NCBI GenBank assembly: GCA_036339465.1
Contig: JAYZAY010000024.1
Location: forward strand, 1 to 64,000
From: Myxococcota bacterium
Lineage (GTDB): Bacteria; Myxococcota; XYA12-FULL-58-9; JABJBS01
DNA: 64,000 bases
Direction of reading: 5' to 3'
Part shown: piece after piece, positions 1 to 59,829 of the stretch
How the letters are laid out: every line of letters begins with the position of its first letter
Position numbering within the stretch: the first letter of the stretch is position 1
The notes under the pieces: generated by a model
What the model was told of the DNA's origin: nothing
Databases searched by the model: none
Seen by the model: only the letters and a program-made list of their open reading frames with translations
Translations under genes and position numbers: made by a program

Positions 1-1
1 A

Positions 2-481
2 GGTGCTGACCTGTTTCTCTCGGTTCATGCGAATGCGTTGGAGGACCAACGTGTGGCTGGAGTGGAGACATACTATCTCGATATGACCGATGACCGTTAT
101 GCGTTGAGATTGGCTTCTGTAGAGAACCAGATCCACGAGGAAAAAGTAAGTGAGATACAATTTCATTTGGCTAATTTAGCCAATCAGCTTTCTACGGATG
201 GTTCGCGAGAATTAGCAGGGATGATTCATAAAGCTGCTTTCAGATCGATGCGCTTGTCGGTTCCAGCCATTACGAAAGATCTTGGGGTTAAAAGCTCTCT
301 CTTTTATGTCCTTCTGGGAACCAGGATGCCGGCTGTTTTACTTGAAGCTGGTTTTATTACGAACCCGAGGCAGGCCCAGGTATTGAAGAACCGTCGGTAT
401 GGAAAGAAGCTAAGCAGGGAACTGGCGGATGGGATTCTTGCTTTCTTAAAGAAACGAGAAACGAAATACGCCACTGAATAA
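2..481 (+). CDS. N-acetylmuramoyl-L-alanine amidase (Amidase_3), C-terminal part; 5'-truncated by window edge
   Basis: Frame is open from position 2: GADLFLSVHANA...GVETYY...FYVLLGTRMPAVLLEAGFITN, typical Amidase_3 (AmiA/B/C) motifs. Confidence 0.9.
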   Translation, partial: GADLFLSVHANALEDQRVAGVETYYLDMTDDRYALRLASVENQIHEEKVSEIQFHLANLANQLSTDGSRELAGMIHKAAFRSMRLSVPAITKDLGVKSSLFYVLLGTRMPAVLLEAGFITNPRQAQVLKNRRYGKKLSRELADGILAFLKKRETKYATE

Positions 482-484
482 TAA

Positions 485-495
485 GGGGGGGGGGG
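485..495 (+). repeat. G11 homopolymer within the glnD ribosome-binding region
   Basis: ataa-G11-agATG, directly upstream of the start codon at 498. Confidence 0.9.
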
Positions 496-497
496 AG

Positions 498-3152
498 ATG
501 CTCAATCTAAAGGAAACAGTTTCGACTGAGAATGCGGCAGCCAAAGCGACTCTTGAAAAGTTACGCGATGCAGGCCACTCGGGAGAGTTTCTATGTGCTT
601 GGTATTCGCGTTTTACGAGGGGGCTTCTAAAGGATGCATTTCGAAATGTTTTTTCCGGTCATGAGAGGGGCGAACGGGTCGCTCTGTGTGGGTTTGGGAG
701 CATGGTTCGGGATGGGCTTTGTCCGTATTCTGATGTTGATATTGTTATTGTATGTGAGTCGATGTCGGAGGGATTGGAAGAAAAAATCCGAGAGTTTTTA
801 TACGGTTTTTGGGATGGTGGAGTTCAACTGGCGCATACTATCCGGTTTCCCGGAGAAACTCTTCGATTAGCATCTCATGATTTGACTGTAGCTACGGCTC
901 TTCTCGATTCGAAACCTTTGGTGGGTGACGTTTCGTTATTTCGAGCGTACCATGATGAGTATTTTGAACTCGTAAGAAATCCGCGGTTTCGACAGCTTTC
1001 GCGGGAGGTCCTTGAAGGGTGGTTGGAATCGGAATCGGTAGGTCTGAAGGCATTTCAGCTGGAGCCGGATCTAAAGAACGGTGTGGGGGGGGGGCGGTCG
1101 CTTCATCGTTTTGTGTGGGGGGCAAAAGTGGTGTGGAGGATCGCACAATGGGATGACCTCGGTGCCAGAGGGATTTGTTCACCGTTTGATTTAGAGACAA
1201 TTCGTTTTGGGCAACAGGTCTTGTTTGATACTCGGTTGGCACTCCGCTCAGTGGTTCAGAGAAAACAGGATATCTTAAGTGTGGACACTCAAGATGATGT
1301 TGCCCAGATCTTGGGGTTTATGCGGGATGAGGCGGGTGACACGCGTTCTGTTCGGCTTCTACAAGCGGTGTTTAAAGCTAAAACGGCCTTACGTTTGGTT
1401 GTTTACCGATTATTGGAATGCGCGTATGACCGCTTGACGGGCCGTCAACCTTTGAGGGTTCGATACCGGTTTGGTCTTGAGGAACCGGTACTAGATGACC
1501 GGGAACTACGGTTACCAAGCATTCAAATAGATGCGGGGGGAAATGATTCGGACTCGATTCTGAATGCACTTAAGGTTGTACGGACTGCTCAGAGAGAAAG
1601 ACGCACTATTCGCGCCGCCGTGGCGGGTTGGCTTCAGGGGGTTGTTCAAGGAGCGCGTAGTGAAGGATACATAGCCAATCAGGCTTGTTTTGACGTGTTT
1701 TGGGAAATTGTTTTGGAAGGCAATCATGCAGGCTTCGGCTTTTCTCTCTTGCACGAACATGGCCTATTGGAACTCTTGATTACGGAGTTTTATGAGGTGA
1801 GGGGTCTGGTGCAAAGAGATATGTACCATATCTACACGGTTGATGTTCATCTTATTGTTTGCGCGGAACTGGTTGCGCAATTTCTATTGGGGGCGAAATT
1901 TGATTCTGGGCATGGGGACGCTTTACCGAGAGAGGTGAGGGTAATCATTCAGAGGTTGCAGCGACCACATGTGGTTATCTTAGCAGCTCTTTTGCATGAT
2001 ATAGGAAAGGCAATAAGAGGAAAGAGTCATAGTGAGACAGGGGCTTCTATAGCCTGCGCTGTATCGGACCGTATGGGCTGGAGCGAAGTAGATAGGGGGG
2101 ATACTGAATTTCTAGTTCGAGAACACCTTACATTGATGGTGGCCTCACAAAGACGGGACCTAGAAGACCCTGATTTGGTCGAAGGTCTCGTTGATGTCAT
2201 AGGCACTCGTGAACGTCTCGATATGCTTTACCTGTTGAGTTATGCAGATGCACTGGCTACTGGGCCCGAGGCTTTTTCGGATTGGAAGCATGCACTGTTA
2301 CGAGAACTCTATCTTCGGTGTCACCAGGCCTTGTTACAAGGTGGGGAATCGGTGGTTATTGCCAGTAGGGCGGAAGAAAAGATTAATAGAATTGTGGGGG
2401 CATCTGACAGCTCTGAACAAAGAAGGATTCGACAATATCTATTTGATCTGAACGCGAGGGATGTCATTGCACGCGATGATGAGGTTCTTTGGCAGGAGTA
2501 TCCTTTGTGGTGTGAGGTTGTGGATGGGCGAAGTAATATTGCTTGCGACTTTATTAAGAAAAACTTCTCTTATTACGTTTCCATTGTCGGAGGTTGTGAC
2601 GAGCAATTATTTTCTTGGGCATGTGACATCTTTTCTGGCTATGGGATTAACTTGGAAACTGCGTATTTCAGCCGTTTCCTAAGTGGGGTTGGAGATGTTG
2701 TTACGATTCGTTTTGTGGCAGAGCCCGAAAACCGTATTGTAAATGAGGCAGAGGTGTCTCGGTTGATAAGAGAGGTTAAGGCCGGTCGGGATACAGTGCG
2801 TGGAATAAAAGAAAAACGGCAAAAGACCCTTGAACGCGCTAGGAGCTTTTGGCCGACGCGCGGTGGCCGGATTCGACCACGAGTCCTTTTTGACGATGAG
2901 GCGTCGAAGGAATTTTCAGTGGTCGATATTTTTGTGGAAGATCGCATTGGAGTGCTCGGTGAGATTGTACGAATTTTGTCGGATTCAGAGGTGAATATTC
3001 ACCTGGCTCGAATCAGTAGGGAAGGTCGAAAAGCGATTGCGGGGTTTTACCTTTCACAGGGAGAGGAAAGACGGCCGCTTAATGGCGAAGAAAAGCTAGA
3101 ATTGTCGCACCATCTCCTACGTTCACTGAAGTTACCTGAACCTTTTAATTAG
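498..3152 (+). CDS. glnD: [protein-PII] uridylyltransferase/uridylyl-removing enzyme (divergent)
   Basis: Nucleotidyltransferase motif GS..R..LCPYSDVD, LEPDLK..GGGR, YHIYTVDVH, HD motif LLHDIGK, C-terminal ACT domain (DRIGVLGEI...IHLARIS); 884 aa. Confidence 0.88.
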   Translation: MLNLKETVSTENAAAKATLEKLRDAGHSGEFLCAWYSRFTRGLLKDAFRNVFSGHERGERVALCGFGSMVRDGLCPYSDVDIVIVCESMSEGLEEKIREFLYGFWDGGVQLAHTIRFPGETLRLASHDLTVATALLDSKPLVGDVSLFRAYHDEYFELVRNPRFRQLSREVLEGWLESESVGLKAFQLEPDLKNGVGGGRSLHRFVWGAKVVWRIAQWDDLGARGICSPFDLETIRFGQQVLFDTRLALRSVVQRKQDILSVDTQDDVAQILGFMRDEAGDTRSVRLLQAVFKAKTALRLVVYRLLECAYDRLTGRQPLRVRYRFGLEEPVLDDRELRLPSIQIDAGGNDSDSILNALKVVRTAQRERRTIRAAVAGWLQGVVQGARSEGYIANQACFDVFWEIVLEGNHAGFGFSLLHEHGLLELLITEFYEVRGLVQRDMYHIYTVDVHLIVCAELVAQFLLGAKFDSGHGDALPREVRVIIQRLQRPHVVILAALLHDIGKAIRGKSHSETGASIACAVSDRMGWSEVDRGDTEFLVREHLTLMVASQRRDLEDPDLVEGLVDVIGTRERLDMLYLLSYADALATGPEAFSDWKHALLRELYLRCHQALLQGGESVVIASRAEEKINRIVGASDSSEQRRIRQYLFDLNARDVIARDDEVLWQEYPLWCEVVDGRSNIACDFIKKNFSYYVSIVGGCDEQLFSWACDIFSGYGINLETAYFSRFLSGVGDVVTIRFVAEPENRIVNEAEVSRLIREVKAGRDTVRGIKEKRQKTLERARSFWPTRGGRIRPRVLFDDEASKEFSVVDIFVEDRIGVLGEIVRILSDSEVNIHLARISREGRKAIAGFYLSQGEERRPLNGEEKLELSHHLLRSLKLPEPFN

Positions 3153-3377
3153 GGTGGTGGGAGTTGGTCTTGTGTTGATGCGGTGCGCTATCCGCCATCC
3201 GGACAGATTAATGTACTGGATAAATTATCATCGTTGTTTTTCGTGCACATCCAAAGTAAGATCGGACTAGGATTTTGGTGAACGCACTTTCCTCGTTTGT
3301 GGAGATAGCCACTTTCTATTTTTAAGTTCGTCCTTTTGTTTCTGGTTTGGCGGGCGTACTCCTAAGGAGAATGTGTT

Positions 3378-4544
3378 TTGGTGGAAACGGATATATTATC
3401 GAAGGAAGGTAAGCCGGGGATTGCGGGCATTGAACCGGTGTCTGTTGTACCCGGCGGTAGTGCTGAGTTACTAGGTGGCCAGGCTGGGGGCGTCTCTGTG
3501 AACGCGCCGGCGGATGGAATCTCTACTGAGACGGCGTTCCGTTTTGCGAAACTTGTGCACGTATTGTCGGGCCCCTCGATAATCGATAGTTCTTTTCCCC
3601 AATTCCCAAGTCGAAAAGATGTGGATGATTTTGTTCGCCTTTGTGGTTTCGACACGGATAATCCATTAGAAAATCAAAAGCTTGATGAGCTGAGGGTTGA
3701 GGCCGTTGGTTATCTTTCAGAGGTGCATAACCTACAGATGCCCGAAGAGGTTTCAGCGATTAATGATTTGCGCGAACTCTTTTGGACTAGAGATGGCACT
3801 TATTTGGCGGCTGAGGCACGAAGCTATGCGTGTATGTTGCTTAAGGTGATGCACATCTTTTATCGGATGTCGGCTCGAGAATTGGTATGCAATGCCCATG
3901 TGTCTGAGGCGGACCTTTTTAATCGTTTGAGCAGTCGATTTTTTCACATGATTGATTTGATGCGAGCAGAGAAAATCAATGTCCTTGAATATGTGGCGGG
4001 AAAAAAGAAGCGCTACTCTTTGGCCACTAAGTTATTGGCGAAGCGCGATACGTTGGCGACTCATATTTTTGACCGGGTACGGTTTCGGCTGGTTTTGGAT
4101 ACTCGCCATGATCTGGTTCGTTGCTTGGAGTTTCTATTTGGTAAGTTGATTCCTTTTAATAGTGTGATGCCTGGTCAGAGTATCAATGGGATCTTGTCTG
4201 ATCTGGATATCCTGGATTATTTGGATTCATCAACTCGGCAGGCAAGTGATTTGAAAGAGGCAATGCCGCTTAAGCATAGAAATGCACCCAATCCGCAAAA
4301 TAATTTCAGTGGAAGTGGTTATCGGAGTATTAACTTTGTGGCCGAGATACCATTACGAATCGATGATCTCGTTAGAGACGCTAGCCCGGCGATTGCCGTA
4401 GTGCAAACAGAGATTCAGCTTCTCGATAAGGGCACAGAGCAAAGGAACAGCGAGGGGAGCTCTGCGCACTATCTATATAAACGACGACAAACTGAGTTTG
4501 TGAGAAAGCGCTTGTTGGCTAAAGACCATCCATCCGAGATTTAA
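3378..4544 (+). CDS. TIGR04552-like protein with a RelA/SpoT-synthetase-like nucleotidyltransferase domain
   Basis: Motifs KKRYSLATKLLAK, IFDRVRFRLV, SGYRSINFV, TEIQL and SAHYLYK occur in RSH Syn1-5 order; RBS AAGGAG at 3364-3369. Confidence 0.7.
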   Translation: MVETDILSKEGKPGIAGIEPVSVVPGGSAELLGGQAGGVSVNAPADGISTETAFRFAKLVHVLSGPSIIDSSFPQFPSRKDVDDFVRLCGFDTDNPLENQKLDELRVEAVGYLSEVHNLQMPEEVSAINDLRELFWTRDGTYLAAEARSYACMLLKVMHIFYRMSARELVCNAHVSEADLFNRLSSRFFHMIDLMRAEKINVLEYVAGKKKRYSLATKLLAKRDTLATHIFDRVRFRLVLDTRHDLVRCLEFLFGKLIPFNSVMPGQSINGILSDLDILDYLDSSTRQASDLKEAMPLKHRNAPNPQNNFSGSGYRSINFVAEIPLRIDDLVRDASPAIAVVQTEIQLLDKGTEQRNSEGSSAHYLYKRRQTEFVRKRLLAKDHPSEI

Positions 4545-4598
4545 TTATTGGAATCGATGAAAGCAACGGGCGCCCAGGATGAAAACTTGGGGGCCTAC

Positions 4599-4868
4599 CT
4601 AGGCCGAACGAAGCGCGTTGAAGCTAGCTGCGAGCCTGGAAATACGCCTAGAAACAGTGTTTTTATGAAAAACACCCTTCGACCCCGCTCTTCTGAGCTC
4701 GGTTGCGGCGGTTGATAAGAGTTCTTGAGCTTTTGATACGTCACCTTTGGTGAGCGACTCGCGAAAACCTTTAATGGCAGATTTTACCTTACCTTTAACG
4801 CTTTTGTTACGGATAGCTCTCTTGATGTCTTGTCGAGCTCGTTTTGTTGCTGAACGATGATTGGCCAC
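4599..4868 (-). CDS. rpsT: 30S ribosomal protein S20
   Basis: MANHRSATKRARQ...RNKSVK...KGVFHKNTVSRRISRL is the S20 signature; GTG start with AGGAG RBS. Confidence 0.97.
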   Translation of the reverse strand: MANHRSATKRARQDIKRAIRNKSVKGKVKSAIKGFRESLTKGDVSKAQELLSTAATELRRAGSKGVFHKNTVSRRISRLAASFNALRSA

Positions 4869-4951
4869 ACAAATCTCCTAAGGAATCTGTTCTCTGGGAG
4901 ACGCGAACTAATTGAGAAACCTCAGATTGTCAAGATAATTGGAGGAGACCA

Positions 4952-5189
4952 TGTGGATTATATCTTGGTGGCGGCCCCGTATATCTTTCGGTGAAACGGA
5001 TTTTTTTGGCATTGGACTCTCAATCACTGGGGATAATATGGCTTTAGCGACGTTTCCACGAAATATCCTGACGAGAGTTCTTTAAGTTGCCATAGATATT
5101 AGGGAATTCTGGCCGTGATTGTTGTGATATCCACGGAAAACTGGTGGTTATCCACAATGAGCTTTCACTTATCCCCAGATTTACCCACA
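4952..5189. promoter_or_regulatory. DnaA-box cluster
   Basis: Perfect TTATCCACA at 5148-5156. One-mismatch boxes at 5169-5177 (TTATCCCCA), 5181-5189 (TTACCCACA), 4952-4960 and 5028-5036 (both - strand). Two-mismatch box at 5127-5135. Confidence 0.7.
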
Positions 5190-5216
5190 GATTACAGAGG
5201 TGTCTATATGCTTGAT

Positions 5217-6026
5217 CTATTGGCTTTTTGCTTTGAGCCAAAGACCCTCAAGTTGCTGTGGGTTGAGGGGACCCGTCGATTTTTCGGCTGCATTTTCGAC
5301 CCAACGGTACCGGTGGGCGAATTTTTCGGACGCAGCCTGAAGGGCGCTTTCGGGGTCGATACCGAGATGGCGAGAAAGGTTTACGATGGTGTAGAGCACG
5401 TCGCCCAGTTCTTCTTTGAGCTTGGTCTTATCTGTGGGGATATCGTTTTGTAGTAATTCATCAAGTTCCGCTATTTCTTCGTCGAGTTTGGCGCGGGGGC
5501 CCTTCCAGTTCGCCCAATCAAAGCCGAGAGCGGATGCAGCTTTTTCACCCATGCGGTATGCTTTGAGGAGGGCTGGAAAGGCTTTAGGAATGCCGTCGAG
5601 TGCACTGCGGTGACTGTTGTTTTCCCGCTCCTTTTCTTTGATCTGTTCCCAGCTCAACCGAACTTGGGCCGCATTTTCTAGGTCTTTGGTTTCACCGTTT
5701 GCGTTCGGGAATACGTGGGGGTGGCGTCGGACCAACTTGTCGGAAATCCCTTGAATCACGTCGGTGATGCTAAAGTGGTGCTCCCTCCTTATTTCGGATT
5801 GAAAAACGATTTGGAGCAGTAGGTCTCCGAGTTCTTCACAATGGTGTTGTGGGTCTGGTGAGTCGAGCGCATCTAGAACTTCATAGGTTTCCTCGAGAAG
5901 ATAGGGGCGAAGCGATTCCAGGGTTTGCTCTTGGTCCCAAGGACAACCATTAGGAGCTCTGAGGGTGGTCATTATTTCGCAGAGTCGACCGAACGCTTTT
6001 TCCGCACTAGAAAAATCTACTAACAT
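5217..6026 (-). CDS. mazG: Nucleoside triphosphate pyrophosphohydrolase MazG
   Basis: LRAPNGCPWDQEQT...LLEETYEV...EELGDLLLQIVF...RRHPHVF, plus a second MazG domain EELGDVLY. Confidence 0.96.
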   Translation of the reverse strand: MLVDFSSAEKAFGRLCEIMTTLRAPNGCPWDQEQTLESLRPYLLEETYEVLDALDSPDPQHHCEELGDLLLQIVFQSEIRREHHFSITDVIQGISDKLVRRHPHVFPNANGETKDLENAAQVRLSWEQIKEKERENNSHRSALDGIPKAFPALLKAYRMGEKAASALGFDWANWKGPRAKLDEEIAELDELLQNDIPTDKTKLKEELGDVLYTIVNLSRHLGIDPESALQAASEKFAHRYRWVENAAEKSTGPLNPQQLEGLWLKAKSQ

Positions 6027-7723
6027 TACTGGGTCTCCCTATGGATGGGGTAGGTTGGGATTTCTACTCCCTGTATTACTTATCCGGTGTTATTTCGGCA
6101 ACTGACTGACTTTTTAAATCACTTTACTTGGGCCAGTAAGCTCTCATTGGTTACGGATTTAGGGTGCTCCGGAGAAAGTCATAAATGTGTTGAAACGTGC
6201 TCGGGTAGGATTGACAGCTTCCTTTTGGTCGTTTGGGAGGGCTCTACTGTATTCGATCTTTTCATTGGGCAGGTGGCGTTGGCGAGTGAACCCCTATGCC
6301 CAGTGGATGGGGTTGTGTGGGAGGAACCCGGGCAGACCGAACCCACCTCTAGCCACGATGAGTCGGCGTCGACGGACTTAGCTAGATTGAAGGGGAATGG
6401 GCCGAGGTCTGCCTTCGGGGAGATTTGGCAGCGCAGTTTAGGGGTTTCGAGAAGGTGGTTCATTGGATGAGCCGCCATGGTTGGCCAAATCTCGCGGCTT
6501 TATCGTTGGTGTTAGTGTGAGATGAAAGCGTGAATTCATGTGGAGGATGTGACCAACGCGCTTGGCGTGGCCAGGGGAGCGACGGAGTTGCGACCTGGCT
6601 TATCTGTTGGATGGATGTGACAGCAGTCATGCTGGGGCATAAAGAGGCGATTTGGGATTAAATCAAAATTATCTTTGTCCTATTTTCTAATGATGCGAAA
6701 CTTTTGTTCGCCCAAGCAGCTTAGGATGCACAGACCAAGGCCTCGAAACTGAGTTTCGTCGACGTACAAAAGTGGGAGCAAACTCTGTCGCGCTACCCAT
6801 AAAAAATGACGATTGAGCCAGGTCTCAACCCTATTGATATGGGGCGGGTATTATCACTTGGACCATTGCCAAGGGGGGACTCGGTGGGAGTTGTTAGGGA
6901 GTGGGAGTCTGTCGATTACCTGATGCTATCGAACCCGAACCCGAGCATTTATTGAATAGAAATAGATTTTTTCGGCTCGTTATTGGATTTTTGACCCGAT
7001 GTTATTGTTTTTTGGCGAGCCGATGCGCTCGATGGTGCTTTGTTTTTATCCCACAGCGATGTCCGCGGGATGAAGGATTGCGGCTGCTGCAAGGGAGAAA
7101 GGGAGGAGCGTTCGTACTGCGAGGAGGAGGTTGGTGTTTGGAGGTAAGCGACACCGGTTTTGTGCGTGTCGTGAACGTTTTGCGATTCAGGGTATGGTAT
7201 TGGGTAAATTATTGTGTCAGTCTCCGGTTTCGGAATTTGAGACACGGATTATGTCGGCTGAGATTGAAGCTGATGGATGTCTGAGAATTCATACGAGGGA
7301 CGAACAAGGATCTCGTTTTGACCGTGGCAAACAATCGGTCAAAAAACTTGAGCCGGAGTTTGATCCCTGCATTTGTGGCGTTTGTCTTTTTATTGTTCGG
7401 GAGGTGGTCGTCGCAATTCGTTTCGGCGGTTATGGTTTGAAATGAGTTCGTCAAATTGTGGATTTAGTTCACCGTTATGTCCACCGGGGTTTCGTTTTTA
7501 TGTGGTTTGCTCGGACAGTGGCGTTGGGCCAGATTCCCCACCTCGAATGGGAAATCGAGGGGTATGGTACTTACTGCGGGCGTTTTCGGTGGACGAATCG
7601 CTAAATTGCCTACGAAGGTTGGATTAATGAAAGCGAAGTTTTCTATCCATGGATATTTGAGTGTCAGATGAGGAAACAAGGAACGGGGTTTGAAATATAT
7701 AGAACCTACTTGGTGAGGATTTT

Positions 7724-9481
7724 ATGAAGTTTTGTGTTTTATTGATGTCGCTCATTTTTGTGTCTTTGCAGGGATGTGGTCTTTTAGAGCAAGAGGGTGG
7801 TGAAGACGGGATGAGTGTTGAGGCGGTAGCCTGTGGCGCGGACGGTGAGTGTCCTGATGGGCAAGTCTGCCGTTCGGAAACTGCCAGCGGTTCGAAGGTC
7901 TGTCGAAATGCGAAAATCGGTGAGGAGCATTTCTTTGCTCGGGTTTCGTTAGCTGTAGCCAGTTCCGATGAGATTCACCTTGTGACCGTGTTTAGACTTC
8001 CCCAAGGCGTTGACGGTGGGCAACGTCCTGCGGAGGTTCCCTCAGAGCAGTTTATTCCCTTTAGCCTGACCGCCGCGCAATCGCAGAGTGGACTGAGTGC
8101 GAAGATTCATCGAGTCCGAAGGACGCGAGAAGAGATGGTTTCAAGTCCACGTAGCCGTTGGGATTTCCATCGCCATCAAGTGGGTGCGAAGATCAGTGAG
8201 TCTCATCGGGTTTTCCCAGGCCTATGGTACAATACGGATCTTGAATCTTCAGGCTGCACCGAGTGTTTGGATGGGGAAGTCTGCTGGAAGGGACAATGCG
8301 CGTCGTCGCTTACTGCAAAGTTTGAAGATGGGTCCGATGTTGCATGTTCGCGGGGCACCGTTGTTGGGGAGTCTGGACATAACCTAGGGGTGGTGTTCGA
8401 TAGTACGATTGAGGATGGGGATATTGCGTTTTTGAAAGCGGCGGCTGAAACGGCGTTGAAAAGTTTTACCGACCTTTATGCGCTCATGGATTTGAATGAC
8501 GAAAAATTGAAAGAGGTAGATATTGATGGCAATGGTTACCCACTGCTGGTGTTTACGAATAAAACATCTAGCAATGTCGGTACCGATGTGGTCGGATTTT
8601 ACAATCCAGCTGATCTTGCTGCTGCTGGAACTTCGGGGGCTACGGGAAACGAATCTGATATCCTTTGGGTCCGCCCCCCTAAGGATGAAGCGGGTAAAAG
8701 ATTGGCCGTTTCTACTATCCTGCATGAGTATTTTCATCTTCTCAATTTTAGCTATCGAACATTCGTTAAGGGATATAGACAAGAGTCTTTATGGCTGGAT
8801 GAGGCGCAGGCTCATTTGATCGAAGATCTGATGGGATATCAGGACGCCAATAGCAGTATCCTGGAAAGTGTTACCTCCCAGTTTAGTGACCCCTCAAGTC
8901 CGAGGTGGCCCGATGTCGGCTTTGCGACTTCTACTTTGAGAATTCGAGACGATTCTGAGACTCGCCGTGGCCAGGGCTATCTCCTTTTGCGTCACTATAT
9001 TGATGTGGAGTCGAAGCGGGCGGGTGCGGGGTCGGCCTCGTTAATGGAAGTGAAAGTTACAGCGCAAGAGCTGTATCGGTCACTTTTGGAGGATTCTAAG
9101 CTTGGTTTTTCACATAAGCTTTTTGATGGGTGGGATGACACGCGCCACGGGAATTTTCTGCTGGGGGTTTTTGCGACCCAATCTGAACAATATTCGGCCG
9201 TGGATTCGTCGGTGATTTATCTGCCTAGACCGGCCGGAGAGAAAACGGGGGCATGGCTGAGGGGGGACTTTCAAGATACTTCGGGAAAAACGTTTTTGCT
9301 GGAAGGACCATACGCTGAAGACTACTCTGACCCGATTTTCGATTTTGAAGGGGACAGCTATGAATTGGTAGACTCTGGGGCCCAGTATTTTCTACTCAGC
9401 GGTATGGAGGTCGGAACTTATCAACTTGAAGGAAAATCCGATGAGGTCGGGATAGCTTTAAAGGTTACAAGGTTGAAATGA
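7724..9481 (+). CDS. Zinc metallopeptidase-like lipoprotein (HEXXH...E, peptidase M30-like) with Cys-rich N-terminal modules
   Basis: Lipobox SLQGC; CGADGECPDGQVC module; TILHEYFHL followed by WLDEAQAH (third zinc ligand). Confidence 0.7.
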   Translation: MKFCVLLMSLIFVSLQGCGLLEQEGGEDGMSVEAVACGADGECPDGQVCRSETASGSKVCRNAKIGEEHFFARVSLAVASSDEIHLVTVFRLPQGVDGGQRPAEVPSEQFIPFSLTAAQSQSGLSAKIHRVRRTREEMVSSPRSRWDFHRHQVGAKISESHRVFPGLWYNTDLESSGCTECLDGEVCWKGQCASSLTAKFEDGSDVACSRGTVVGESGHNLGVVFDSTIEDGDIAFLKAAAETALKSFTDLYALMDLNDEKLKEVDIDGNGYPLLVFTNKTSSNVGTDVVGFYNPADLAAAGTSGATGNESDILWVRPPKDEAGKRLAVSTILHEYFHLLNFSYRTFVKGYRQESLWLDEAQAHLIEDLMGYQDANSSILESVTSQFSDPSSPRWPDVGFATSTLRIRDDSETRRGQGYLLLRHYIDVESKRAGAGSASLMEVKVTAQELYRSLLEDSKLGFSHKLFDGWDDTRHGNFLLGVFATQSEQYSAVDSSVIYLPRPAGEKTGAWLRGDFQDTSGKTFLLEGPYAEDYSDPIFDFEGDSYELVDSGAQYFLLSGMEVGTYQLEGKSDEVGIALKVTRLK

Positions 9482-9978
9482 AGCATTTCGTTTTTTTCTG
9501 GCTTTCTCTTGGGGGATTTGCGGCGGAGATTAGGGCAGAGCAAATACAGGGGGGGACCATCCAAGTAGGTGGTACCGACTTATTTATGGCGGTTTCCCTG
9601 GAATCTCTTGGTGTTACGACGCCCCTGGGTGGGGAACTCACGAAGGAACTTCAGCGTATTCATGGCGCTCAAGTGAGGGTTGTGGGGCAGATGGGAGCCG
9701 AGGGAAAGTTTGTGGTCAATTCATACCAAATCATAGAAATATTTGGCAAAAAACCGATGGTTGGGAAAGTATCAACACAGGGTGAGGGTACGGTCTTGAC
9801 GGTGGAGAGTAAAAAGGGCAAAGCCCTTAAGATAGTACTGAAAGTTTCAAAGAGATCGCGCCTCAAGCGCTGGGCAACGGAGAATCTGAAGGTCTGGGTT
9901 ATTGCTAGGGAACTTCCTTCCAAGGAGTTAAAGGTTATTCGCTATGGATTACTGGACGTCCTCAACAGTTCGCGGTAG
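9478..9978 (+). CDS. Hypothetical exported protein
   Basis: Signal-peptide-like N-terminus; ATGA overlap with the upstream gene implies translational coupling. Confidence 0.7.
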   Translation: MKHFVFFWLSLGGFAAEIRAEQIQGGTIQVGGTDLFMAVSLESLGVTTPLGGELTKELQRIHGAQVRVVGQMGAEGKFVVNSYQIIEIFGKKPMVGKVSTQGEGTVLTVESKKGKALKIVLKVSKRSRLKRWATENLKVWVIARELPSKELKVIRYGLLDVLNSSR

Positions 9979-10035
9979 ATCACCGGAGAAACCGTATAGA
10001 ATATCTTTTATTGTGATTTTGGGAGACGTTAGGAA

Positions 10036-10560
10036 ATGATTTCTAGATTGATAGTGGCTGGGTTCTTGCTGACGTTTCCGGTGGCGCCAAAAATCGACAA
10101 GACATCGGCGCTGGCTGAGGAAGTGAGTGTAGCCGAAGAAGATCCTATGATGCTTTTCGCCAGTTTAGGTGATGCGCTGATGGCCAGTGAAGTGGAGGTT
10201 GGTGGCTCTATTCGAGCAAAAAGGCACAAGGACAAACTCCTAGCTTTGCGACTTCGGGATCCCCGGAATTTGGAAGGCAAGATTGTGTCTGTGCGTAAAG
10301 CGAGCTTCCCCACGGTTGCTTTAAAAATTCAGGTCATGAAACCTCCGAGAAATCAGGGAGCCAGCGACGGTTTTGAGCGACATGAGGAGATTGTTATTTT
10401 TCCAAAGCTGGTCTTCGCTGGTTTGGCGCCGGACATGAGGGACCCCGCAACCTTGGTGAATGCAGGGGCATATTTTCTTCGCCCCGGGGACCGGGTGATG
10501 GTTCGCGTATCAGCTAAAAGAGGTAGGGTTTGGGAGGCTTCGTATATCGAACGCAAATAA
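10036..10560 (+). CDS. Hypothetical exported protein
   Basis: 174-aa ORF with hydrophobic N-terminus, co-oriented within the operon. Confidence 0.65.
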   Translation: MISRLIVAGFLLTFPVAPKIDKTSALAEEVSVAEEDPMMLFASLGDALMASEVEVGGSIRAKRHKDKLLALRLRDPRNLEGKIVSVRKASFPTVALKIQVMKPPRNQGASDGFERHEEIVIFPKLVFAGLAPDMRDPATLVNAGAYFLRPGDRVMVRVSAKRGRVWEASYIERK

Positions 10561-10576
10561 ATGAGAAGTTTTGTAT

Positions 10577-13018
10577 ATGGCTAGACCTTCTGTAAGCAAT
10601 CGAGACAAAAAATGTGAGGATGCAAGTAGCTCTCGTCCTACGGGACAGTTTGCGCGGCCGGCAAACGAGGTGGAGTATCCTCTCCGGTTTTTGAATCGGT
10701 ATCAATGGTTTCCGCTGGGGTGTATGGTTACTGTGCTCGTTACGGTGGCCTTGATTGCGATTGCGGACTCGTCTGTCGAATCGACTGATTGGAACGATGC
10801 CCTTATTGGTACGCCAGCCATCCGTAATTTTAAGGCGAATCGTGATATCGAGGCCGTGGATCCCATGGCGAGTAAAGAGCTTGAAGAAGAACGATTGGAA
10901 GCCCTGCCGCGTATTTTCGATTTTGATACTCGAAGTCTTCACGATAGTTTGGAAGTAGTGGCCCGAATTAGAGGCAAGGTTGCCATGGATGTGCCGGATC
11001 TTGCTGGTACTGAAACGGCTAAGAACCCGAAGATCGCGGTGGCGAGTGTGATTGGCCTGTTACGCGAGGAAGGGTATGAGGTCGGTCGATCTTCTGGGGT
11101 AACCACCAACTCAGTGGTCTTGAAGTCGATTTTGGATGCCGTACGCTCGGTGTTGAATGGCTACGTTGGGCTGCCCATTGTGGATGGACTCGGTGGCTTT
11201 ACCGCCTTCGATAGAACCAATGGTATTCGATTGCAAATAGTGGGGGATAACCGGGCAAAACCACTTCCCATCTATCGGGTCGAAGATATTGTGAGGCGTA
11301 AAGAACTTCTTGCAAAAGAGGAATCCACCATTCGTAATTTTTCCCCCGAATTTACAGAAGTAGAGCGAATTTTCGTTCGGGATATTCTCTTCGCCTTGGT
11401 TCGGCCTAATGTCACGATCAACCGCCATGCAACTGCACTTGACCGCGACCTTGCATTAATCTCAATGGAGAAAGTTTGGATTCGTATTAAGCGGGGTGAG
11501 ATGGTTGTCCGAGATGGAGAACGAATTACGGGCCGGCAATTGGCGGTACTCCGGCAACTTTATGCATCAGGCTCTAAGGATACAAAACCGCTGCACTTTT
11601 TTGCGACGGTCCTCTTGTTGTCTTTGGCTTTTATTCTCTTGGGGAGGCTTTTGAAGAGCCGCGGATGGAGTCGTGTGATTACGGCTCGGGATATGGTCTT
11701 CGGTGGCTTGGCGCTGATCCTCACGACTCTCGGTATAAAGGGGTGGCTTTTCCTAGGACAATTTATTGGGGAAGCGGGCACGGGTTGGAAAGCGATTCTT
11801 TTTGAATATGCAGCTCCCGTTGGGGCGGCGGCTCTTTTGGTTAGAATTGTTTTGCGGTATGAAATCGCTTTAATTTTTAGCATGTTGGTCGGGCTTACGT
11901 GTGCTTTGATGAATCCGACTTCCCCCACGTTTTTTCTTTATTGTTTAATTGGCGGAGCTACTGGGCCGGTGGTGACGTCACGGATTAGAGCACGGGGAGA
12001 TATCCTCAGGGCCGGTTTGTTTATCGGTTTGGCACAGATGGTGACTCTATGCGCGATGGAGTTATTGGTTGGAGAATTTGAATTTGTGCGGTTGTTGGCC
12101 TTGGCTGGGGTGGCATTGGCAAGTGGGACTTTAGCTGGATTTATCGCTTTGGGGTTAACGCCGGTAGTGGAATTTGTTTTTCGGTATACCACTGAGCTTA
12201 AATTGTTGGAACTGGCGAATCTAAATCACCCAGCTCTGAAGGAGTTATTGGTTGAAGCGCCGGGGAGTTATCACCATAGCATATTGGTGGGAACCTTAGC
12301 CGAATCGGCGGCTGATGCCATTGGGGCCAATTCTCTTCTGGCTCGGGTGATGGCTTATTATCATGATCTGGGTAAGGGCTGTAATGCTCCCTATTTTATA
12401 GAGAACCAGCGAAATGGTGTGAATCCTCACGACCGAATCAAGCCATCCATGAGCGTCATGATCATTAAACGGCACGTAACGGACGGTTTGGAGGTTGCGA
12501 AGAAATTCAAGTTAGGCGAGCCCATTCAAGCCGCGATTTGTGAGCATCACGGGACCACGTTGATCCAATATTTCTATCAGAAGGCCTTGGAAAGTGGTGA
12601 TGGGTCAGGTTCTTCGGAGCAGGATTTTAGATATCCCGGTCGCAAGCCCCAGACCCGTGAGGCGGCTCTGGTTATGTTGGCTGATTCTGTGGAGGCGGCA
12701 TCTCGTACAATTGCGGATCCCACATCGGCGAGATTACAGGGGATGATAAATAAGTTAATTCGTGGAAAATTTTCAGATGGGCAACTGGATGAGTGCGATC
12801 TGACACTAAGGGACCTACATATTATCGCTAAGGCATTCAGAGAGGTGTTGGTCTCACTTTACCACAAGCGTATCGAATATCCCGACCCAGTACGGATGAC
12901 TCAATTGCAGAGAAGGAAGCATGGCAGTACAAATTCAGAATTGGAGGAAGAAGCCGCGGTTGTTGACGAAAACGCTGAAGAAGATAGCGAGTGTTATTTG
13001 CGACGACTTGGGTTATAG
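10577..13018 (+). CDS. 7TM-HD phosphohydrolase (7TMR-HDED + 7TM + HD; PgpH-like cyclic-dinucleotide phosphodiesterase family)
   Basis: Extracellular domain, about 7 TM helices, LLELANLNHP, APGSYHHS, YYHDLGK, EHHGTT, FRYPGRKPQTRE, MLADSVEAASR. First ATG is at 10577 (ORF track starts at TTG 10571). Confidence 0.92.
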   Translation: MARPSVSNRDKKCEDASSSRPTGQFARPANEVEYPLRFLNRYQWFPLGCMVTVLVTVALIAIADSSVESTDWNDALIGTPAIRNFKANRDIEAVDPMASKELEEERLEALPRIFDFDTRSLHDSLEVVARIRGKVAMDVPDLAGTETAKNPKIAVASVIGLLREEGYEVGRSSGVTTNSVVLKSILDAVRSVLNGYVGLPIVDGLGGFTAFDRTNGIRLQIVGDNRAKPLPIYRVEDIVRRKELLAKEESTIRNFSPEFTEVERIFVRDILFALVRPNVTINRHATALDRDLALISMEKVWIRIKRGEMVVRDGERITGRQLAVLRQLYASGSKDTKPLHFFATVLLLSLAFILLGRLLKSRGWSRVITARDMVFGGLALILTTLGIKGWLFLGQFIGEAGTGWKAILFEYAAPVGAAALLVRIVLRYEIALIFSMLVGLTCALMNPTSPTFFLYCLIGGATGPVVTSRIRARGDILRAGLFIGLAQMVTLCAMELLVGEFEFVRLLALAGVALASGTLAGFIALGLTPVVEFVFRYTTELKLLELANLNHPALKELLVEAPGSYHHSILVGTLAESAADAIGANSLLARVMAYYHDLGKGCNAPYFIENQRNGVNPHDRIKPSMSVMIIKRHVTDGLEVAKKFKLGEPIQAAICEHHGTTLIQYFYQKALESGDGSGSSEQDFRYPGRKPQTREAALVMLADSVEAASRTIADPTSARLQGMINKLIRGKFSDGQLDECDLTLRDLHIIAKAFREVLVSLYHKRIEYPDPVRMTQLQRRKHGSTNSELEEEAAVVDENAEEDSECYLRRLGL

Positions 13019-20931: not shown

Positions 20932-23508
20932 TTAGAAACTCGCCAGTGACTGGACGAAACTAAAGTTCAGTGTGAATGGTAAGTCGGAGAGGTCTTGTTC
21001 ACAGGAACGAAGTGGGAATCCCAGGTCGATGTGTAGGGCGGAGGGTGCGATGGCTAAGATATCGGCGAGAAATCGAATGCTGTAGCCGATGTCCACGAAC
21101 CAACTTTTATCGCAGCTAAGGTTTGCTTGGGGGAAGTAGACGAGATCCGAGAATACTGCCCCCTGAATTTGGGTCACGGTAAAGAGTCCTAGGAGATTGT
21201 TGGTGCTTTTGAAGCTTAAAGCTTGTCGGTACTCTGCGGTGCCCGTAGCCCTTAGTCCGGTGCCGTGAAAATCGGATGGCAGGTAGCTTCGGGCTGCCGA
21301 ATAGAGAGAACCTAGTTGGAGTTTATGATGTTTAGGCGCGGCTGCTCCTTGGTAATCTAAGCGTAGTCTGGTCGCAATTGCCATTTGGGACGCCAGGGGA
21401 AATAAATGCAAGATGCTGGCGGTTAGGTCTGGGTAGCTGTTTTGGATCGGGCCTCCCAAGTTGAACGTTTGGCGAAAGCCGACCAAGCCAGCTTTTCCCC
21501 GAAAACTTCCGAATATATTATACCGATTGTCGAACCGATAACCTCCGCCGAGGCTTAGGGTCATAGAGGGATCGCTAGGGGCGGTTTGTAAAAGAACGCT
21601 GTAGGATGTCGCCAAGAAAAGGTGATTTTTGTATCTAAGGTTGTCAAGGGGGGAGCCAAAGCTGTAGCTAAAACGTGTTCCGAGAGCCAGTAGTTCCCGG
21701 TTGTATGATAAAGACGCTCCGAAGCGGTAACGATAATCGTAGGTAGGGCGTAGTCCCAAATCAACGCCCGTAGAGAATCTTCCATCTATTGCACTGAGCT
21801 GTGCAGAAAAATGATTGAGAAGAAACGTCCAGTGGTTCGAGAAATCGTTGTCCTTTTCTGGGGCCTGTCCGAGCGGGCTGTGGAGTTCGACGAGTGAACG
21901 TGTGGGGATGAGTTTTAGGGTTTCGCCGTCAGCTTCTGGGGGAATTGTTAAGGTGCCAGGAGCCTTGAACTGAACTTTTCCGGGGCCTTTTGGGGTTTCA
22001 TATTCAAACCATAGATTTTCTGAGAGAAAACCGGCATCCGGACCGGTTTGCGTTATTCTGAATTGTCGGTCGTTGTTGGACACGGGTTCTAAGGCGTAGC
22101 CGATTTTCAGACATTTGGATGTCCATGCTGCCAGGGTTGGCAAATCTCCGCCATTATTCCTGATGAAGTTCATGAAGTCTTCCCAGGTTCTGTTTTTAAG
22201 GTCGATCAGCCCCAATATGTCTACATTTGGGATTTCCGCTTGTAGCTTTGAGTAGAGTGGCTCAGCCCGGTGATGCCCATACAGAAAGGTAAGGGGACTA
22301 AAATCATGGAGTTTTGGGGTACAGACGGGGCGATAGTAGGTTCGTTGAAACGGAATTGAAGGGGCATGTAAAAGGACATCGACCTGTGGGATGAACGCAA
22401 ACGGTTTTATTAAGGTCGATATACCTTCACGGGATTCAGACTGAATACTCTGAGAACTATTTTTCTGCGCGTATTCTCTCCTAAGCAATGTTTTGGCTAG
22501 AATTGCGCTGAGAAGTCCTTGGAAATGTTCGTTTTGTGCTGAAGTGGAAGCACGAATCACTCTCGTCAAGAGGGCTTCTTGGAGCCTGTTACGGTGTAAC
22601 TTTTGCAATTGCTCAAGGGGGGGGATGTGAAAGAAACGGTCGCTTATGGCGAAACCGAGGTCGAATTCCACAACCAACTCGCTTCGAAGGGGCAGGATGA
22701 TGAGGAGCATGGGAGTTCGAAAATCTCTGGTCATTTGATGGTGGGGTAAGGATTCTAGTAGGGCGCGAATTTGTTGTAGGTGGGTGCTTGGTGTTGTTTT
22801 TCCAAGTTCCCATAGTTTTGACGGATAACTTCTGGATTGGTTTAAGTTTGGGTAGATAAACAAGGATTCCTTAATGACGCCTTCCTGGATATAGATTGGG
22901 GTTAGCTTGAGCGTTTTAGACAGAAGGATAGGCAAGTAATGTCCATGATGGGTTTGGTGGTACTTTTTTTGTTTAGGGGAGGTGGGTTGGGTACCGATGA
23001 GACCAGGCTCAATTTGGTTTAACACGATAGTGTAGTGGATGTCTTGTTTTGGGATGAGGTCTGGATGTGTGGAAAGAGTGGGGTGCCATCCGGTTAAGAG
23101 ACTTAAGTAGTATGGCGATTTCCCAAGTAACTCTCTTCCTTCAGCGACCGTTGTCTTAAAGTGGATGACGAGTGTTTCGTCTTGGTTTTCGATTACTGCT
23201 TTTTGTCGATCCTTAAAGTAATTCAATCGGTCCGGCATTTTTCCGCTCTTCATCGTGGGTGGGGACGGTGATAGGGGAGGGAGGTACCAAGCTCGATTTG
23301 TATCGGTGAGTGCATCTTCGCGTTGGTGGACCCAGTTTGGGTATTGACTCATATAGAGCGTTTTGCGGTTCGGTTTGCGGCAGTTTAGGGTTCCGGCTAC
23401 CACGCCCATTTTAACATCGATTTGTGCCTGGATACTGAGTGATTCGCATGGAAGAGGCGTTGGTGCCATGGAGTGTACGGTAATTATGAAGAGGAAGGTA
23501 AGGGGCAT
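20932..23508 (-). CDS. Hypothetical outer-membrane protein: M1-aminopeptidase-like N-terminus (no HEXXH) plus Omp85-like C-terminal barrel
   Basis: 858-aa ORF. C-terminal pattern FDNR...G, P...LQLG...ARSY, AEYR, GAVFSD, IGYSIRF, LHIDLGFPL and terminal F parallels Omp85 barrels. Confidence 0.6.
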   Translation of the reverse strand: MPLTFLFIITVHSMAPTPLPCESLSIQAQIDVKMGVVAGTLNCRKPNRKTLYMSQYPNWVHQREDALTDTNRAWYLPPLSPSPPTMKSGKMPDRLNYFKDRQKAVIENQDETLVIHFKTTVAEGRELLGKSPYYLSLLTGWHPTLSTHPDLIPKQDIHYTIVLNQIEPGLIGTQPTSPKQKKYHQTHHGHYLPILLSKTLKLTPIYIQEGVIKESLFIYPNLNQSRSYPSKLWELGKTTPSTHLQQIRALLESLPHHQMTRDFRTPMLLIILPLRSELVVEFDLGFAISDRFFHIPPLEQLQKLHRNRLQEALLTRVIRASTSAQNEHFQGLLSAILAKTLLRREYAQKNSSQSIQSESREGISTLIKPFAFIPQVDVLLHAPSIPFQRTYYRPVCTPKLHDFSPLTFLYGHHRAEPLYSKLQAEIPNVDILGLIDLKNRTWEDFMNFIRNNGGDLPTLAAWTSKCLKIGYALEPVSNNDRQFRITQTGPDAGFLSENLWFEYETPKGPGKVQFKAPGTLTIPPEADGETLKLIPTRSLVELHSPLGQAPEKDNDFSNHWTFLLNHFSAQLSAIDGRFSTGVDLGLRPTYDYRYRFGASLSYNRELLALGTRFSYSFGSPLDNLRYKNHLFLATSYSVLLQTAPSDPSMTLSLGGGYRFDNRYNIFGSFRGKAGLVGFRQTFNLGGPIQNSYPDLTASILHLFPLASQMAIATRLRLDYQGAAAPKHHKLQLGSLYSAARSYLPSDFHGTGLRATGTAEYRQALSFKSTNNLLGLFTVTQIQGAVFSDLVYFPQANLSCDKSWFVDIGYSIRFLADILAIAPSALHIDLGFPLRSCEQDLSDLPFTLNFSFVQSLASF

Positions 23509-27883: not shown

Positions 27884-30288
<2,405 letters not shown>

Positions 30289-58518: not shown

Positions 58519-59829
58519 TTAAAAGCGCCAGTAGAGCCCCAGAAAATAGGGTTGAAGATGAAAGAGAACACGGAAGCGATCGGTGGCTGCGATCATGATT
58601 CCGAAATCGATGCCCATGCCCTTGGCGCCGGTAATGTGGTTCCTAAAATCTGGGTCATAGAACACCTCCCCAAGGATTTTGAAATACTTTGAAAGGTCGA
58701 GGTCGAAACCTAGGTGAAAACGGTAGGTTGGAAACGAAGTCCATTTTCTGAAGTTAAAAGAATTGTATTCGATCTGGGCGCCGGCATGTAAGCCGAAGCG
58801 CCCTCCCCTCTGAAGTAGCCAGGAAAGTGAATTGGCCACATACAGTTGAGTTTCCCACCCATAATCCTCTTTTTCGATATAGTAGGGATCTTGGTTTACA
58901 TCTTGGCTTAGGCGAGTGGTGTTTTCCATGTCTTCTGTCGAGTATGAAGAGCGGTTCGCGTAACGGGAATTTTCTTCTTCTTCGAAGTTGGTACGTCTTT
59001 TTTCATAGCCTTCCTCTTGTCCGGCTGCGTTGAAGAATGTGTGATGATTGCCATTATACGTAAAGGTCTGAGAGCGAATCCCAACCGCGATGCCATGCTC
59101 AACCTTATTGCCTCGACTGAAATAGGGTTGCCACTTGAGTTCTATATTGGGATTCAGGTTTTGGGTCTCGTTAAGTCCAACGAGGGTGACAAGGTTTAGA
59201 GAGAGCAATGTGGTGTCGGTTAGGCCATAAGCGAGGGAGAGACCACTCAAATAGATATCACCGGATTCGAAGACATAGGCGGTGGGGTCGAAGAAGATAT
59301 CAATAAGGGGTTCGATGGTGTGGCTGAAGGTCTCCCGCGACTCCTTTTCAAGCACGGTGCTGCCCTCTGGCAGCAAAATGTTAAGCAGCCCTCCAGGTTG
59401 AGCGGTCTTTGTGGGTGTTGCTTGGGGCTTGTCTTGACTGTTGGGATAATAGAACTTGAAGGATGCGATTTTACTTGTGGGAACGGTTAGTTTTCCAAGA
59501 CTTGATTGGAGGACAAATGCTTCGTTGGTTTGTTTTAGTAATTCCCCCCTGAGCAAAGAACCATCGGACAGTTTTAGGAGGACGTGGGGTTTCGCCATCT
59601 TATCCACAGGGATCTTAAGTTCTCCGAGTTCCGATTCTATCAGCCAGTGGGTCTCGGTTCTCTCCTTAACCACGCCCCGAACAATATTACCGTCCTTTAG
59701 TTTGATGGTTTCTTGAATTGGGTCAGAACCGGTTGTGGGGGCGGCTGTATTCGCATCCTGCGCGAAGGCACCGTTACACCAAAGAAGAATCGTCATGACG
59801 AGGGGTGCGCGTAATTTTACCATGCCCAT
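58519..59829 (-). CDS. Hypothetical exported protein with two N-terminal beta-rich repeats and a probable C-terminal outer-membrane beta-barrel
   Basis: Signal peptide ending AFA; repeats IKLKDGNIVRG.../LKLSDGSLLRG...; alternating aromatic strands; C-terminal LYWRF beta-signal. Confidence 0.65.
   Translation of the reverse strand: MGMVKLRAPLVMTILLWCNGAFAQDANTAAPTTGSDPIQETIKLKDGNIVRGVVKERTETHWLIESELGELKIPVDKMAKPHVLLKLSDGSLLRGELLKQTNEAFVLQSSLGKLTVPTSKIASFKFYYPNSQDKPQATPTKTAQPGGLLNILLPEGSTVLEKESRETFSHTIEPLIDIFFDPTAYVFESGDIYLSGLSLAYGLTDTTLLSLNLVTLVGLNETQNLNPNIELKWQPYFSRGNKVEHGIAVGIRSQTFTYNGNHHTFFNAAGQEEGYEKRRTNFEEEENSRYANRSSYSTEDMENTTRLSQDVNQDPYYIEKEDYGWETQLYVANSLSWLLQRGGRFGLHAGAQIEYNSFNFRKWTSFPTYRFHLGFDLDLSKYFKILGEVFYDPDFRNHITGAKGMGIDFGIMIAATDRFRVLFHLQPYFLGLYWRF

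Follow-up and report, generated by a model that had tools for sequence, protein, structure and literature searches.

The question raised by this locus is what a protein that resembles the synthetases of the RelA/SpoT homologue (RSH) enzymes, with several of their characteristic residues replaced, could be doing in a Myxococcota bacterium. The gene lies at 3378..4544 (+) of the window, by which we mean the whole 64,000-nt stretch that was analysed (positions 1 to 64,000 of contig JAYZAY010000024.1, assembly GCA_036339465.1), and it encodes a 388-aa member, TTG start included, of the TIGR04552 family. RSH enzymes are central stress-signalling enzymes of bacteria, with (p)ppGpp as the stress signal, and new products, (pp)pApp and pyrophosphorylated tRNA among them, have repeatedly been traced to divergent members. 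An initial annotation of the window had proposed a stand-alone synthetase-like enzyme with altered catalytic motifs and a non-canonical acceptor. Our best explanation is that the protein may be an active ATP- and Mg-dependent pyrophosphokinase of RSH fold, which would use a non-canonical, probably small-molecule acceptor and would serve as a housekeeping signalling enzyme of Myxococcota and their relatives; from sequence comparison and a predicted structure, we give this reading about an even chance of being right. Homology to the RSH synthetase domain, judged from the same two kinds of evidence, we regard as established.

The protein matches the NCBIfam profile TIGR04552 with E 7.9e-75 and 252.3 bits (cut-off 125), residues 58-380 lying on positions 7-351 of the 352 of the profile, and the overlapping NCBIfam model TIGR04562 with 239.5 bits (cut-off 140). 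Both scores are well above their cut-offs, so that the likeness to these families noted in the initial annotation is surpassed, and both models are matched by all 41 aligned relatives. A word-indexed search returned 94 relatives, and an exhaustive one 480 representative clusters at E<=0.001. In the 388-aa frame, a variable and probably disordered tail (residues 1-49, 3378..3524 (+); pLDDT <50 at residues 1-40, unaligned among relatives) is followed by a family-specific N-terminal helical domain (residues ~50-172, 3525..3893 (+)) with the conserved FDTDNPL and LKVMHI, and by the strongly diverged RSH synthetase-like domain that forms the C-terminal half (residues ~173-380, 3894..4517 (+)).

Regarding the sequence, PF04607 (RelA_SpoT) is the only Pfam match of the protein, with E 0.0083 over residues 210-253; its relatives likewise score low, 39 of the 41 aligned ones matching at E<=1 with a best value of 6.5e-6. 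The same scan found no HD, TGS or ACT domain in the protein, in agreement with the initial annotation. An RSH HMM was also built, for which 31 long RSH proteins of the phylum, the Rel of this genome among them, supplied the synthetase regions. It matches 37 of the 256 non-identical family sequences that served for all family-wide residue counts given below (E<=0.01, best 3.7e-6), as against 0/256 shuffled and 0/256 reversed sequences. When the family profile was aligned with the RSH profile by hhalign, a P of 0.011 was obtained over 63 columns, which cover motifs 1 and 2; in the extended alignment EIQ and AH..YK stay in register, and PGQSIN falls on PGRFKD of the Rel of the genome.

Fold comparison led to the same enzymes. 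The AlphaFold2 model, based on the 41-sequence alignment (pLDDT 83.4, pTM 0.82), gave 35 Foldseek matches against the PDB at E<=0.001, and all 23 chains among the matches listed are RSH enzymes. RelP (6ewz) was matched with E 5.9e-5 and a probability of 1.00, and the others include RelQ, RelA and the Rel proteins of M. tuberculosis, S. aureus, S. equisimilis and T. thermophilus. A VIA-align run against 48,161 representatives, independent of Foldseek, placed seven RSH synthetases first: Rel of B. subtilis (8acu_B, score 11.3, rmsd 2.7 over 131 residues, model 176-361; and 6yxa, 10.9), RelQ (5dec, 10.3), SAS2 (6fgk, 10.1), SpoT (7qps, 9.6), RelP (6ewz, 9.4) and RelA (5l3p, 9.1). Thus, the fold expected in the initial annotation is the one that both programs rank on top. 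The N-terminal helical domain of ~120 residues matched no known fold, which agrees with its earlier description as a helical region of no known type.

The five motifs listed in the initial annotation are all found in the translation, and in the order given there, at residues 208-218, 230-237, 313-320, 344-350 and 362-368; the names Syn1 to Syn5 are its own and were not found by us in PMC3153485. Motif 1, GKKKRYSLATK (residues 208-218, 3999..4031 (+)), contains K210-x3-S214-x3-K218, which aligns with the K/S/K of GRxKxxxSxxxK in the RSH HMM and is conserved in 253/256, 246/256 and 250/256 sequences, respectively. Motif 2, IFDRVRFR (residues 230-237, 4065..4088 (+)), carries D232, the presumed Mg-binding Asp (254/256), together with R235 in place of the RSH Gly/Ala (248/256) and R237 (242/256). 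It is followed by PGQSIN (residues 265-270, 4170..4187 (+)), an uncharged counterpart of the PG-RXKD/EXDD of long RSHs that was placed onto PGRFKD of the own Rel by a low-confidence hhalign stretch; P265 is found in 245 and N270, which stands for the Asp of RXKD/EXDD, in 252 of the 256 sequences. Between this element and motif 3 there is a family-specific insertion of 44 residues (271-314, 4188..4319 (+); pLDDT 71-79), without counterpart in the RSH profile, which ends with N308-x-F310-S311-G (N308 240/256, F310 and S311 226/256 each).

Motif 3, YRSINF (residues 315-320, 4320..4337 (+), with a model strand at 318-327), presents an aromatic residue at the acceptor-stacking position and an Asn for the RSH His, its equivalence to GYxSxH being based solely on motif and strand position. 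Residue 315 is Tyr in 192/256 and Phe in 55/256 sequences (Y or F, 247/256). At position 319 the replacement of His by Asn described initially extends to most of the family (N 200, S 21, K 10, Q 8 and H 6 of 256). Motif 4, TEIQLLD (residues 344-350, 4407..4427 (+)), was aligned to EIQIRT and keeps E345 (252/256) and Q347 (247/256), with D350 for the RSH Thr in 249/256. The presumed Mg-binding Asp and the Glu are retained, as had been indicated. The Arg of EIQIRT is indeed lost, and the position is hydrophobic across the family (V/L/I/M/F); the Leu that replaces it is however the second one, L349, and not L348. Finally, motif 5, SAHYLYK (residues 362-368, 4461..4481 (+)), aligns to AAHWxYK, with H364, Y367 and K368 conserved in 245, 248 and 242 of the 256. 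Other residues are invariant and private to the family: N308, F310, P325, R327, N357, G360, R370, Q371 and R378. The donor and catalytic side is intact and the acceptor side, although rebuilt, is strictly conserved. This pattern favours an active enzyme whose second substrate differs, and speaks against a decayed site.

The comparison with characterized RSH enzymes leads to the same two sides of the site. With RelQ/SAS1 (5dec, 5ded) and RelP/SAS2 (6ewz, 6fgk) the protein has in common a single synthetase domain without HD, TGS and ACT, as well as the Asp, E-x-Q, H-x2-Y-K, the aromatic residue and, with a register uncertain by one residue, the K-x3-S-x3-K helix. In contrast to them, it adds the N-terminal helical domain and the insertion before motif 3, has the His, Arg and Thr of motifs 3-4 replaced and an Arg for the Gly of DxxGxR, and scores below the Pfam threshold. 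With regard to the long RSHs (Rel 8acu/6yxa, SpoT 7qps, RelA 5l3p), residues 345-368 can be aligned without gaps with EIQIRT...AAHWDYK of the own Rel, whereas the hydrolase, TGS and ACT domains are absent and an uncharged Q-S-x-N occupies the place of RXKD. The toxic small alarmone synthetases (toxSAS; CapRel 7ztb, FaRel2) and the type VI secretion system (T6SS) effector Tas1 (6ox6) were matched more weakly in structure than Rel and RelQ; unlike them, the protein lacks a secretion domain and is encoded by a vertically inherited core gene with neither an antitoxin nor an immunity gene beside it.

Family membership, fold, residue conservation, distribution and synteny are what the analysis shows, while catalysis, the donor role of ATP and the kind of acceptor are inferred. 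The protein would be a cytoplasmic, stand-alone enzyme with the RSH synthetase fold. ATP would be held by the K210/S214/K218 helix, D232 with Mg2+, R237, E345/Q347 and H364/Y367/K368, and its beta-gamma pyrophosphate would be passed to a second substrate, stacked on Y315, at one of the hydroxyls of that substrate. In the toxSAS FaRel2, the substitutions D90G, predicted to impair Mg2+ coordination, and Y128A, predicted to disrupt acceptor stacking, are both reported as non-toxic (bioRxiv 10.1101/2021.04.30.441581). The acceptor pocket, on the other hand, appears to have been rebuilt family-wide, with R235 for Gly/Ala, Q-S-x-N270 for RXKD/EXDD, N319 for His, a hydrophobic residue at 349 for Arg, D350 for Thr and the 44-residue insertion with N308/F310/S311. 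Since this rebuilding is fixed in the family, the acceptor is probably not GDP or GTP bound in the canonical way; we take it to be a different small molecule of nucleotide-like type. A regulatory or localising role is probable for the N-terminal helical domain. We read the protein as a signalling enzyme of housekeeping type and not as a toxin.

Several observations weigh against this proposal. The PF04607 score of 16.8 bits is below the gathering threshold of 27, and thus, of the two profile comparisons suggested by the initial annotation, the one with TIGR04552 stood and the one with RelA_SpoT fell short. For the Arg in the RxK element of RSHs there is no conserved counterpart, position 208 being G/S/N and position 209 R/K/Q/V, and the register of motif 1 shifts by one residue, since hhalign against the RSH profile and one PDB sequence search differ from the alignment given by the RSH HMM. 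No significant match came from sequence searches of the PDB, in which the queries were the protein, the family profile and two relatives; Rel of S. aureus (7oiw) came closest, with E 0.37 for P0026. It should also be noted that in structure the protein is nearest to (p)ppGpp synthetases and not to enzymes with other acceptors, so that a canonical product has to be kept in mind. That the motifs form one pocket is assumed from the fold match. The papers found in our searches that name TIGR04552 or MXAN_4858, the family member of M. xanthus, assign them no function. Lastly, the support for expression is weak: contigs of two marine metatranscriptome libraries match 3974-4445 without difference, and in four RNA or RNA-like runs parts of 3269-4445 are covered by short contigs of identical or almost identical sequence, but contigs from RNA libraries are a hint of expression and no proof of transcription, and the parts that they leave uncovered are uninformative.

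The nearest alternative, which we consider unlikely, is that of an ordinary small alarmone synthetase making (p)ppGpp or pGpp from ATP and GTP, GDP or GMP, that is, a second source independent of Rel. The stacking aromatic residue kept across the family would suit it, and so would a genome whose single canonical PF04607 gene is the long Rel on contig C43 and which carries on C45 a frame similar to small alarmone hydrolases. RXKD or EXDD sets the preference for GTP or GDP and, according to PMC3153485, this motif is conserved in long RSHs only, so its absence does not exclude a small synthetase. What speaks against it is that His, Arg and Thr of motifs 3-4 are replaced family-wide and that the acceptor loop bears the 44-residue insertion; in addition, the copy number of HD_4 genes shows no pattern relative to the presence of the family, and the rows of Dataset S1 of PMC7229694 seen by us omit an extra RSH for the Anaeromyxobacter and Bdellovibrio strains, compared at genus level as described below. 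The pocket could also be suited to a macromolecule, with the 3' end of tRNA or another RNA being pyrophosphorylated, as by FaRel2, CapRel and PhRel, or with a protein being modified, as a regulated housekeeping modification. According to bioRxiv 10.1101/2021.04.30.441581, toxSAS with the same fold, Asp and Tyr pyrophosphorylate the CCA end of tRNA under the guidance of a cluster of basic residues, and here many near-invariant basic residues lie off the donor site (K222, R235, R327, R370 and R378). However, inheritance of this single-copy gene is mostly vertical, and no conserved small antitoxin-like neighbour was found in the 80 related loci. We consider a macromolecular acceptor to be distinctly unlikely.

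The least probable of the readings considered here is a pseudoenzyme, a non-catalytic nucleotide binder that would sense ATP or an alarmone and have the N-terminal domain as regulatory or scaffolding output. It would account for the sub-threshold Pfam score, for the lack of a known product and for the loss of several canonical RSH residues, namely the Arg in RxK, the Gly in DxxGxR, the motif 3 His and both Arg and Thr in EIQIRT. Nevertheless, D232 and E345, which are linked to the chemistry, are kept in nearly all sequences together with the K/S/K helix and H..YK, something unusual in a dead site, and the replacements are themselves invariant, as in a pocket that has changed and not decayed.

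In the phylum the gene is distributed as a near-core gene, in single copy and with mostly vertical inheritance. A whole-genome scan found one TIGR04552 copy in the genome of the window (a 4.17-Mb assembly of 102 contigs), located on C24. The family was present in 23/31 close relatives and, mostly as a single copy, in 158/201 genomes sampled across the phylum (155/193 among the high-quality ones), a sample that includes one unpublished genome, G177, while none of 14 control genomes had it. By taxonomic family, as labelled in our sample, the occurrence was 72/74 in f17, 27/27 in f21, 17/17 in f12, 0/17 in f10 and 0/14 in f16. The titles of the 80 related loci that were fetched name Myxococcota, Anaeromyxobacter, Nannocystis, Kofleriaceae, Polyangia and 'Bdellovibrionales', and the copy of a Myxococcaceae-type genome shares 34% identity over 331 residues with the protein studied here. 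M. xanthus MXAN_4858 and DOE51_RS08710 of Bdellovibrio sp. NC01 are examples of members with which the full-length match is shared, and a table row of PMC9888234 annotates a gene of the latter strain with the TIGR04552 family. Among proteins of 680-2000 aa no fused form was detected at E<=1e-5, which is weak evidence, and the extensions of the relatives P0097, P0112 and P0129 gave no Pfam match.

Apparently, the family has not been counted in the RSH census of PMC7229694. In the rows of its Dataset S1 available to us, Anaeromyxobacter sp. Fw109-5 has PbcSpo[H] and Rel[HS], one B. bacteriovorus strain has Rel[HS] alone, and M. xanthus DK1622 has Rel[HS], PbcSpo[H] and an additional Rel[S]. The Anaeromyxobacter and Bdellovibrio rows omit the family though both genera have it, a comparison made at the genus level. 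Literature searches on RSH-like, RelA-SpoT-like and alarmone synthetase-like proteins found nothing relevant to the family. Regarding the RSH complement of the genome of the window, a small HD_4 frame of the RSH hydrolase type, similar to small alarmone hydrolases, was observed (218 aa; C45:6435-6809 (-) of G000, locus L147), and this genome has no canonical small synthetase. A partnership of such a hydrolase with the family was considered and rejected, given that HD_4 copy number followed no pattern with the family across the 201 genomes.

A second aspect concerns the neighbourhood of the gene in other Myxococcota, where in many genomes it stands next to gltJ and closes the G1 cluster for gliding motility on the 3' side. 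In 21 loci of the Anaeromyxobacter type, a giant TPR protein and a ZnR-GYF protein are encoded directly before the family gene and on the same strand, the latter being a full-length match to NCBIfam gliding_GltJ (E 2.3e-109). GltJ is a membrane protein of the Agl-Glt gliding machinery, and its ZnR-linker-GYF module binds MglA-GTP, AglZ and MglB (PMC11135422). At least 93 of the 158 family-positive genomes have a GltJ match upstream on the same contig and strand, 73-3407 nt away. This count is a lower bound obtained by comparing by eye the coordinate tables of TIGR04552 and GltJ, with 53 of the 158 genomes not judgeable. In one further genome the gap is 6.3 kb, and in 11 the best GltJ match among the matches listed is on another contig. 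The linked cases span six families (f17, f21, f26, f32, f12 and f19); for instance, the pair of genes in a Myxococcaceae-type genome combines a GltJ equivalog match of 931.6 bits with a TIGR04552 match of 413.7 bits, and the TIGR04552 gene of an f12 genome is closely preceded by the end of a GltJ-like gene (267 bits). The gaps are bimodal, ~80-370 nt and ~1.9-2.1 kb, and the longer ones hold an ORF of 313-363 aa without Pfam or NCBIfam match. Examples of this intervening ORF, which is possibly a further member of the G1 cluster tail, are L143:4258-5199 (+) and L144:5335-6426 (-), from Myxococcaceae-type and f26 genomes.

The linkage is not strict. The genome studied here shows no gltJ adjacency, with the gene on C24 and the GltE-like and GltG-like genes on C62, and in f10 all 17 genomes have GltJ-like genes and none has TIGR04552. 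Within the order to which the window belongs, the two genes are not linked either. Moreover, since related genomes are not independent samples, fewer independent events underlie the linkage than the count suggests. As for phenotypes, bioRxiv 10.64898/2026.08.28.747804 reports that transposon mutants of MXAN_4858 resemble weak glt mutants and that motility was not overtly affected by an earlier insertion in the gene. A more specific picture would be that of a hitherto undescribed, lineage-specific pyrophosphorylated nucleotide 'alarmone' of Myxococcota, Bdellovibrionota and other predators, which might tune Agl-Glt gliding and predation, for example through the GTPase cycle of MglA at GltJ. It is compatible with the data, given the gltJ adjacency in six families, the mutant phenotype reported in that preprint and the combination of an intact donor side with a rebuilt acceptor side; all the same, we regard it as speculative and very unlikely to be right in this form.

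With respect to the Glt genes of the own genome, a Glt-like cluster was found on C62 of G000, at ~105-122 kb (L125, L129 and L137), with a GltE-like match (E 7.4e-26), a GltG-like match (E 1.7e-84) and a weak match to the GltJ tail; a second and weaker Glt-like set is on C25. A search for GltJ itself in this genome yielded weak and partial matches only (E 2.2e-4 and 9.8e-11), and these were not accepted as a GltJ.

The near-core vertical inheritance and the linkage to the gliding G1 cluster had been overlooked in the initial annotation; what is new here is the recurrent gltJ linkage together with the family-wide residue statistics. This copy differs from other TIGR04552 members in not standing beside gltJ and in belonging to a low-GC marine lineage. 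If the protein is active, it would represent a new branch, probably with a new product, in alarmone biology. The family can be tested, as M. xanthus has a member and is genetically tractable, and the recurrent adjacency to gltJ points to gliding motility, focal-adhesion dynamics and predation as the phenotypes to look at. The label 'TIGR04552 family protein' could gain the note 'RelA/SpoT-like nucleotide pyrophosphokinase fold'.

Concerning the limits of the gene, the frame was taken from the ORF list and its translation, with the stop codon at 4542-4544, and an AAGGAG of Shine-Dalgarno type is read at 3364..3369 (+), 8 nt ahead of the TTG. The public gene call P0002 begins only at residue 82 of the 388-aa frame, and the ESM Atlas record of the protein at residue 2. 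We take the long frame as the better reading because the TIGR04552 match begins at residue 58 and many relatives start with MLVE-, as this frame does. A scan of 3100-5000 for promoters and terminators gave no more sites than were found in shuffled sequences.

Upstream, a GlnD-like gene (498-3152 (+)) ends 226 nt before the family gene. It encodes a GlnD-like [protein-PII] uridylyltransferase with NTP_transf_2, GlnD_UR_UTase, HD and ACT domains, which matches TIGR01693 with E 3.5e-113 and 379.5 bits, under the equivalog cut-off of 519.4. GlnD was discarded as a partner, since tblastn found a glnD-like gene within 8 kb in 0/80 related loci and the adjacency is private to this genome. Downstream there are two convergent genes, rpsT (4599-4868) and mazG (5217-6026; NF007113, 278 bits vs 208). 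Across the 80 related loci, in which genes of the high-GC sequences were called with a GC3 filter, no universal neighbour and no conserved small antitoxin-like neighbour were found, and neighbours vary by clade. rpsT and MazG are common to the 8 closest loci, 5 of which also have an amidase. MazG was likewise rejected as the hydrolase of the product: it is found in those 8 loci only, 0.5-3.1 kb downstream on the opposite strand and past rpsT (and murJ where callable), which corresponds to housekeeping synteny. Elsewhere the window consists of core chromosomal sequence, with prfB, lysS, lolCDE-like genes, bamA, lpx, guaB, guaA, lepA, lepB, pyrB and valS.

The phylum may hold further divergent RSH-like proteins besides TIGR04552. 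Two frames of 363-378 aa, L126:721-1812 (+) in G023:C17 and L127:991-2127 (-) in G008:C65, give borderline PF04607 matches of 27.2 and 26.1 bits. They were examined as members of the family and rejected, with no NCBIfam match for either and an hhalign E of 0.71 for the G023 frame.

Other observations concern the window itself. Neither Pfam nor NCBIfam gave a match for three consecutive ORFs of 585, 166 and 174 aa at 7724-10560 (+), of which the first two overlap by 4 nt; they directly precede a gene for a 7TM-receptor HD hydrolase (10571-13018) and may form an operon. No Pfam match at E<=1e-5 was obtained either for the large ORFs at 20932-23508 (-), 27884-28786 (+) and 58519-59829 (-), of 858, 300 and 436 aa, which stand in a region that otherwise contains housekeeping genes. 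The stretch was matched in marine and seawater metagenomes of several studies. In positions 1-12000 of the window the GC content is ~47%, far lower than the 51-75% of the first 20 related loci, the GC skew is strongly positive throughout (+0.11 to +0.32), and the genes are mostly on the plus strand.

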